Assembly (NCBI RefSeq): GCF_055900595.2
Contig: NZ_CM148325.1
DNA: 64,000 bases
Direction: 5' to 3' (one strand)
A program made the position numbers and the translations under genes. Under the pieces are notes generated by a model. It worked only from the letters and a program-made list of their open reading frames with translations. It was not told the DNA's origin and did no database searches. This document shows, piece after piece, positions 1,574 to 1,834 of this stretch (the first letter of the stretch is position 1; every line of letters begins with the position of its first letter).

Positions 1574-1834
1574 AACTCCATGAATACTGTGGTATGTCTT
1601 ATTAATCCTGAAAGTATTTCATAGGTTTTCTTAATCGATTGTAGAGGTATGTTCTGATAACGCCTCTACAATCTCTAGGGATTTTGTCTACTTTGAGATA
1701 AGAAATTTCATATTATGCCTTAAGGCTGAATGATTTGTGCAAAATATAATTGTTTTTCCATCGAACATGAGGTGTATGTCATAAGATTAAATATTAACTA
1801 CGTATTCCTCGCAGTGAATAGCATGAGGTAAAAA

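Follow-up and report, generated by a model that had tools for sequence, protein, structure and literature searches.

The perfect inverted repeat between yhiL and yhiJ is best explained as the core of a hairpin in the yhiL 3′ UTR, one that would set the yhiL transcript end or shield it and keep that gene apart from yhiJ; we give this reading a probability of roughly 45%. We base this on the structure, position and strand asymmetry of the element, on its conservation within E. coli and on bicyclomycin-sensitive read-through that peaks at the hairpin in strain K-12. Below, 'the window' is the whole 64,000-nucleotide (64-kb) stretch of DNA that was analysed, and positions refer to its plus strand unless another strand or genome is named.

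The arms of the repeat, GATTGTAGAGG (1637–1647) and CCTCTACAATC (1663–1673), are 11 bp long, exact reverse complements of one another (100% complementary) and separated by 15 nt, just as the first-pass annotation of this DNA had described them. That annotation had also put the repeat 64 bp past the yhiL stop codon and about 160 bp before the yhiJ start; we find its first base 64 nt past the stop and its last base 161 nt short of the yhiJ ATG. The predicted fold of the sense-strand RNA extends beyond these 11 pairs. G1662 pairs with position 1648 to form a twelfth pair, U.G in the window and C-G in most strains, which leaves a 13-nt loop (1649–1661) in which E. coli haplotypes differ at 1651, 1653 and 1659. 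Below the core is a lower stem, its 5′ strand at 1628–1634 (UUCUUAA) and its 3′ strand at 1675–1681 (CUAGGGA in the window, UUAGGGA in most strains); in the window the pairs join 1628–1633 to 1676–1681, and K-12-type strains gain a seventh, 1634–1675. The lower stem is made of A-U and G.U pairs with one C-G pair and, because its pairing uses A-U and G.U pairs, it is confined to sense-strand RNA. The extended hairpin spans 1628–1681 and comprises a 12-pair upper stem and a weak lower stem of 6–7 pairs, 18–19 pairs in total.

Folding energies reflect this asymmetry. The sense strand of the window folds at −20.3 kcal/mol (z = −4.2; none of 200 shuffles was equally good) and the haplotypes common in E. 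coli at −23.7 to −24.0 kcal/mol (K-12 type, −24 kcal/mol), whereas the antisense strand of the window forms the core stem only, at −16.9 kcal/mol. The better fold of the sense strand, in which both the twelfth pair and the lower stem rely on G.U pairing, argues for an element that acts at the end of the yhiL transcript. RefSeq annotates nothing over the hairpin, and an Rfam 15 scan of 1000–2500 with E-values up to 10 returned four chance-level matches (E at least 2.8; eukaryotic snoRNA and miRNA), none of them over the hairpin.

Both neighbouring genes lie on the plus strand. The 3′ part of yhiL (DUF6860 and DUF4049) occupies 1–1573 as a frame open from the window edge, with its TAA at 1571–1573 and its 5′ end before the window; yhiJ (DUF4049; 1835–3457, ATG at 1835) encodes 540 amino acids. 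Pfam DUF4049 matches both proteins (E ∼1e-173), which bears out the earlier description of two flanking DUF4049 genes. The gene order yhiL–yhiJ–yhiY–yhiI–rbbA is that of annotated E. coli loci, in reversed orientation relative to K-12. Both DUF4049 proteins (314–1570 and 1835–3454) also hit the calcineurin-like metallophosphoesterase family PF00149 weakly, below threshold (E = 9e-4 and 9e-3), and carry GD..GDR and GNHE motifs, which suggests that both are divergent phosphoesterases.

YhiL and YhiJ are paralogues with ∼36% protein identity, and a further proposal of the first-pass annotation was that the repeat is a remnant of the duplication junction, the scar of the tandem duplication that gave rise to the two genes. 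Its position between two paralogues is the one thing that speaks for this origin. Comparison of the spacer with the DNA downstream of yhiJ and upstream of yhiL, however, revealed no similarity above chance level (best E-value 0.07, with the inverted repeat not involved), and E. albertii has both genes and no repeat. Moreover, the low identity of the paralogues makes the duplication ancient, so that a neutral junction sequence would have decayed. We consider this origin effectively excluded.

The spacer also contains a promoter for yhiJ. A predicted sigma-70 promoter at 1720–1750 has the −35 element TTAAGG (TTGAGG in K-12), a 19-nt spacer and the −10 element TATAAT at 1745–1750. Genomic SELEX with RpoD holoenzyme reported a constitutive RpoD promoter and H-NS binding in the yhiL–yhiJ spacer, the promoter being printed as TTGACG-19-TATAAT (PMC3946193); such data place RNA polymerase and H-NS in the spacer at a resolution coarser than single bases. 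The sole TTGAGG-N19-TATAAT match of the K-12 locus corresponds to window 1720–1750. The yhiJ −35 element lies 47 bp beyond the 3′ arm of the repeat. Since the repeat precedes the promoter from which yhiJ itself would be transcribed, the hairpin sits in the yhiL 3′ UTR, and its location 64 nt past the stop codon and 47 bp before the −35 element is the one expected of a gene-end element.

We compared the hairpin with published transcript-end data for K-12, where it lies at NC_000913.3 3632788–3632752 on the minus strand. From DirectRNA-seq with and without bicyclomycin, Adams et al. 2021 defined 1078 Rho termination regions in K-12 MG1655 (PMC7815308, Supplementary file 2). One of these, an 'orphan' region, has its best position on the minus strand at 3632784, with a Rho score of 2.77 (p = 5e-6) and reads upstream/downstream of that position of 73/36 in untreated and 182/249 in treated samples, which are low counts (PMC7815308). 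Coordinate mapping, which applies to K-12 only, puts this peak 4 nt inside the 5′ arm of the hairpin; the authors describe their region positions as approximate, with processed 3′ ends nearer than the sites of termination (PMC7815308). The peak in Rho score could in part be due to bicyclomycin-induced firing of the yhiJ promoter ∼115 nt downstream.

Rho-dependent transcripts of E. coli end right after stable stem-loops without a U tract, stems that guard against PNPase and RNase II and are closely followed by Rho loading sites (Dar and Sorek 2018, PMC6061677), and this class has been used for prediction by BATTER (bioRxiv 10.1101/2023.10.02.560326). The yhiL hairpin resembles members of the class in being a stable 3′-UTR stem-loop whose core stem is not directly followed by a U tract (UCUCUAGGG being the sequence immediately 3′ of the core), in lying inside a bicyclomycin-sensitive region in K-12, and in being clade-specific rather than deeply conserved. 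It differs from them in that the 3′-end compilations searched show no steady-state end at the foot of its stem, in that no C-rich, G-poor stretch follows it, and in that the gene upstream is silenced and often a pseudogene. The ratio of C to G was 0.53 in the 80 nt downstream and 1.1–1.2 in the 63 nt upstream; with a value of 0.53, the downstream sequence does not have the character of an adjacent Rho loading site. The Term-seq tables of the K-12 study (Supplementary files 1 and 3; PMC7815308) contain no 3′ end at 36327xx–36328xx and none within 200 nt, the TERMITe and TRS supplements contain none for the hairpin, and the RIL-seq-derived sRNA lists include the yhiJ–yhiI spacer only, the yhiL–yhiJ spacer being absent. 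Because the locus is bound by H-NS and its expression is for that reason assumed to be low, the absence of a mapped 3′ end carries little weight.

If the hairpin marks the end of yhiL, transcription leaving yhiL would stop in the intergenic region, chiefly through Rho, and the weak U-rich tail that follows the extended stem would add a small intrinsic contribution at most. The stable stem would block 3′-to-5′ exonucleases and fix the mature yhiL 3′ end. As a result, yhiL transcription would be kept out of the separately promoted, H-NS-bound yhiJ. Three readings of the repeat had been suggested at first pass, and among them an RNA stability element fits best, given the 3′-UTR location ahead of the yhiJ promoter, the sense-only extended fold, the lack of a canonical terminator tail and the Rho peak in K-12. 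Position and structure agree with that suggestion; the causal part, in which the hairpin itself brings about or protects the 3′ end, is what we infer.

Could the hairpin instead release RNA polymerase without a factor? The first-pass annotation had reported that no U-run follows the repeat, which is correct for the 11-bp core and incorrect for the extended fold: the stem ends at 1681 and passes directly into a U-rich tail at 1682–1689, UUUUGUCU in the window (6/8 U) and CUUUCUCU in K-12-type strains (5/8 U), though this tail is weak and non-canonical. A hairpin past a stop codon, with 18–19 pairs, −20 to −24 kcal/mol and a U-rich stretch after the extended fold, shares these features with intrinsic terminators and might act as a weak, non-canonical one for yhiL. 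It departs from them in its 13–15-nt loop, in a U tract that is interrupted, variable between haplotypes and unconserved, and in a tail-proximal stem base of A-U and G.U pairs beneath an internal loop, an arrangement that is unfavourable for intrinsic terminators. The weak base, long loop and interrupted tail together make a poor intrinsic terminator. A consensus terminator and promoter scan called a terminator at the hairpin on neither strand, it is missing from a catalogue of intrinsic terminators built on Term-seq, and the bicyclomycin-sensitive read-through in K-12 points to Rho. We thus agree with the original view of the repeat as atypical for an intrinsic terminator, and factor-independent release appears unlikely.

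To gauge chance expectation we used Markov-1 simulations of the 64-kb window, counting perfect inverted repeats (11 bp or longer, loops of 3–30 nt). The simulations gave a mean of 0.45 such repeats per 64 kb, with one or more in 37% of them, so the repeat by itself is not significant. The real window, however, holds four, about nine times the expectation, three of them just past ORF ends, and repeats at gene ends are as a class enriched well above chance. One, a perfect 12-bp repeat at 42581–42617 (CTCTTTCCCTGC / GCAGGGAAAGAG, 13-nt loop), begins 16 nt past the stop of the ORF at 41480–42565; no U run follows it, and this seems to be a gene-end stem-loop of the same kind as the yhiL hairpin, which likewise has a 12-pair stem and a 13-nt loop. 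Another, at 34868–34892 (11 bp, 3-nt loop), separates convergent ORFs with ends at 34867 and 34900 and probably terminates transcription in both directions. The fourth, at 38347–38378 (11 bp, 10-nt loop), is inside a minus-strand ORF (38300–38692). That three of the four repeats lie at ORF ends, one of them so similar in build, is consistent with the yhiL hairpin being a gene-end structure.

The hairpin segment is present in 4170 of 5426 complete E. coli genomes, at one place per genome and never on plasmids, and ∼23% of the complete genomes are without it. Like REP and BIME palindromes, the hairpin is an imperfectly extended 3′-UTR palindrome that could stabilise the upstream mRNA against exonucleases; unlike them, it is AT-rich and single-copy in the 4170 genomes, and it bears no obvious resemblance to the GC-rich REP consensus. 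With one copy per genome, a dispersed repeat (REP/BIME, ERIC or MITE) is rejected.

The haplotype of the window is rare: among the 5426 genomes, identity of at least 99% was found in 17 with a 76-nt query centred on the hairpin region and in 11 with a 401-nt query, most genomes being ∼91% identical. In the window, yhiL is 91.8% identical to its K-12 counterpart, the spacer 91.2% and yhiJ 91.7%, so that 1–3457 is 8–9% diverged; within 3458–4890, by comparison, the next spacer (yhiY region) is 99.4% and yhiI 95.5% identical. Judged by these alignments, the yhiL–yhiJ locus is unusually variable within E. coli. Deletions recur there, and one E. coli assembly lacks yhiL from ∼656 to ∼1674, the right end of the deletion falling at the 3′ arm of the hairpin. 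The nearest complete genome, that of strain Z0117EC0005, differs from the window by three bases in 4.9 kb, one of which, at window 1226, creates a premature yhiL stop where the frame in the window is open. Together with the frameshifts in K-12 and other strains, this stop indicates that yhiL has been inactivated repeatedly. The hairpin is unchanged in K-12 and several other strains in which yhiL is a pseudogene, a situation that recent common ancestry and selection fit equally.

Arm variants were read at nine loci (six distinct haplotypes in the hairpin segment) out of the 4170 genomes. Of seven distinct E. coli haplotypes, which differ by ∼9% overall, six share identical arms, and variation between the arms falls at four sites (1648, 1651, 1653 and 1659). 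In seven sequences that span the identity range, all 22 arm positions are invariant (P ∼0.036), which suggests arm conservation marginally beyond expectation. Of three more strains, taken from those that rank low in identity, one has an A-to-T change in the 5′ arm that its partner does not compensate. Pair by pair, 16 of the 19 pairs are invariant in nine strains (six distinct sequences), one shows a one-sided change (C-G to U.G), none a compensatory one, and two include an unpaired cell. The C-G to U.G change, the only one in the stem between haplotypes, still pairs, in keeping with an RNA structure at the yhiL end. Divergence within E. coli is so small that covariation is uninformative.

Outside E. 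coli, exact-protein look-ups led to one relative, E. albertii, which has both genes and a 356-nt spacer whose promoter-proximal part is conserved. The orthologous hairpin segment has diverged there and folds no better than shuffled sequence (z = −0.5). A T/C polymorphism in E. albertii, which gives U.G or C-G in place of the U-A pair of E. coli, was considered as a compensatory path and rejected, as the remaining stem is broken. Several E. albertii assemblies have a single 430-amino-acid yhiL::yhiJ hybrid gene and no spacer. In a collection of species-representative genomes, a peptide-pattern scan recovered no relative and no Escherichia locus, and a DNA pattern of the conserved block gave 72 chance matches in unrelated AT-rich genomes and again no Escherichia locus; our guess is that the E. 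coli representative genome is without the yhiL–yhiJ locus. Conservation with compensatory changes, the comparison that the first-pass annotation had envisaged across E. coli genomes, was therefore borne out in its first half only: the hairpin is conserved within E. coli, with zero compensatory changes, and is lost in E. albertii.

The main alternative, to which these data leave considerable room if rather less than an even chance, is a functionless palindrome that arose by chance in an AT-rich spacer and looks conserved through the recent shared ancestry of E. coli haplotypes. The simulated frequency of such repeats is compatible with this, as are the marginal conservation of the arms and the longer invariant runs elsewhere in the same spacer, in the promoter region (29, 27 and 25 nt). 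With the window and K-12 91.2% identical in the spacer, the 22 arm positions should differ at ∼1.9 sites, so that observing zero is unremarkable. The lack of compensatory changes in 19 pairs, the uncompensated arm mutation, the loss of the stem in E. albertii and the failure to find a corresponding mapped 3′ end, sRNA or Rfam family in the sources searched also suit a chance palindrome. Most of these points, together with the missing Rho loading signature, also count against a hairpin that defines the end of yhiL. Three observations oppose the chance explanation: the approximately nine-fold excess of inverted repeats, three of four at gene ends, by which a repeat in such a place would more often be functional than not; the placement of most hairpin changes between haplotypes in the loop or at pairing-neutral positions; and the published Rho peak within the 37-nt element.

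Conserved arms around a variable spacer would also suit a protein site with two half-sites, and the first-pass annotation had listed a protein-binding operator among its suggestions. A dimeric regulator would then bind the two 11-bp half-sites as DNA and control the yhiJ promoter from upstream. The repeat has in common with palindromic dimer operators its two conserved inverted half-sites, its variable spacer and a promoter-containing region, where genomic SELEX detected binding of H-NS and RNA polymerase. In addition, yhiJ and yhiL appear in a list of LexA-dependent, DNA-damage-induced genes without a good LexA box, which suggests regulation of an unknown kind. A LexA operator was rejected, since the yhiL–yhiJ spacer contains no LexA-box match. 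In contrast to typical dimer operators, the half-sites are far apart, with centres separated by 26 bp, and the site would lie at about −84 to −120 from the inferred start, both atypical of a simple operator. The half-site TTGTAGAGG does not recur, being found in the 64-kb window only in the inverted repeat and being absent from the yhiM–yhiL promoter region of the paralogue, and we know of no other motif that it matches. Furthermore, the T/C difference at 1648 breaks the DNA symmetry and keeps the RNA pairing, the extended pairing exists in sense RNA only, and E. albertii is without the site though it retains the promoter-proximal block. Nothing thus speaks specifically for an operator, which we regard as very unlikely.

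Judging from conservation, the block ATAAGAAATTTCATATTAT at 1698–1716, just upstream of the yhiJ −35 element, has a stronger claim than the hairpin to being a regulator-binding or UP-like element. This block belongs to the yhiJ promoter region, is separate from the hairpin and is invariant in the E. coli haplotypes read. It differs by one base in E. albertii, despite a YhiJ identity of 57%, and is still present in the E. coli strain from which most of yhiL is deleted; its conservation is deeper than that of the hairpin. Between the two, just after the core of the hairpin, window 1677–1688 reads TAGGGATTTTGT, which resembles the start of the GadE 'GAD box' (TTAGGATTTTGT...), and the locus is near the acid-fitness island. 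K-12 has TAGGGACTTTCT at this place, so the likeness is not conserved and is probably due to chance. More elaborately, the hairpin and the 1698–1716 block might together form a conditional switch, in which Rho would stop transcription at the hairpin under silencing and a factor or condition (for example, late DNA-damage signalling) would open or mask the stem, allowing read-through and co-expression of the two phosphoesterase-like paralogues, yhiL and yhiJ; we rate this a long shot.

In conclusion, the hairpin that may define or protect the yhiL transcript end would be at most one more unannotated 3′-UTR stem-loop at a Rho-dependent transcript end, of which E. coli has many. The class is well described, and the hairpin holds nothing surprising and has no bearing on any open question. 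It does provide a concrete element for the 'orphan' Rho region at 3632784 in K-12, and may help work on the expression of the uncharacterised, H-NS-silenced genes yhiL and yhiJ.
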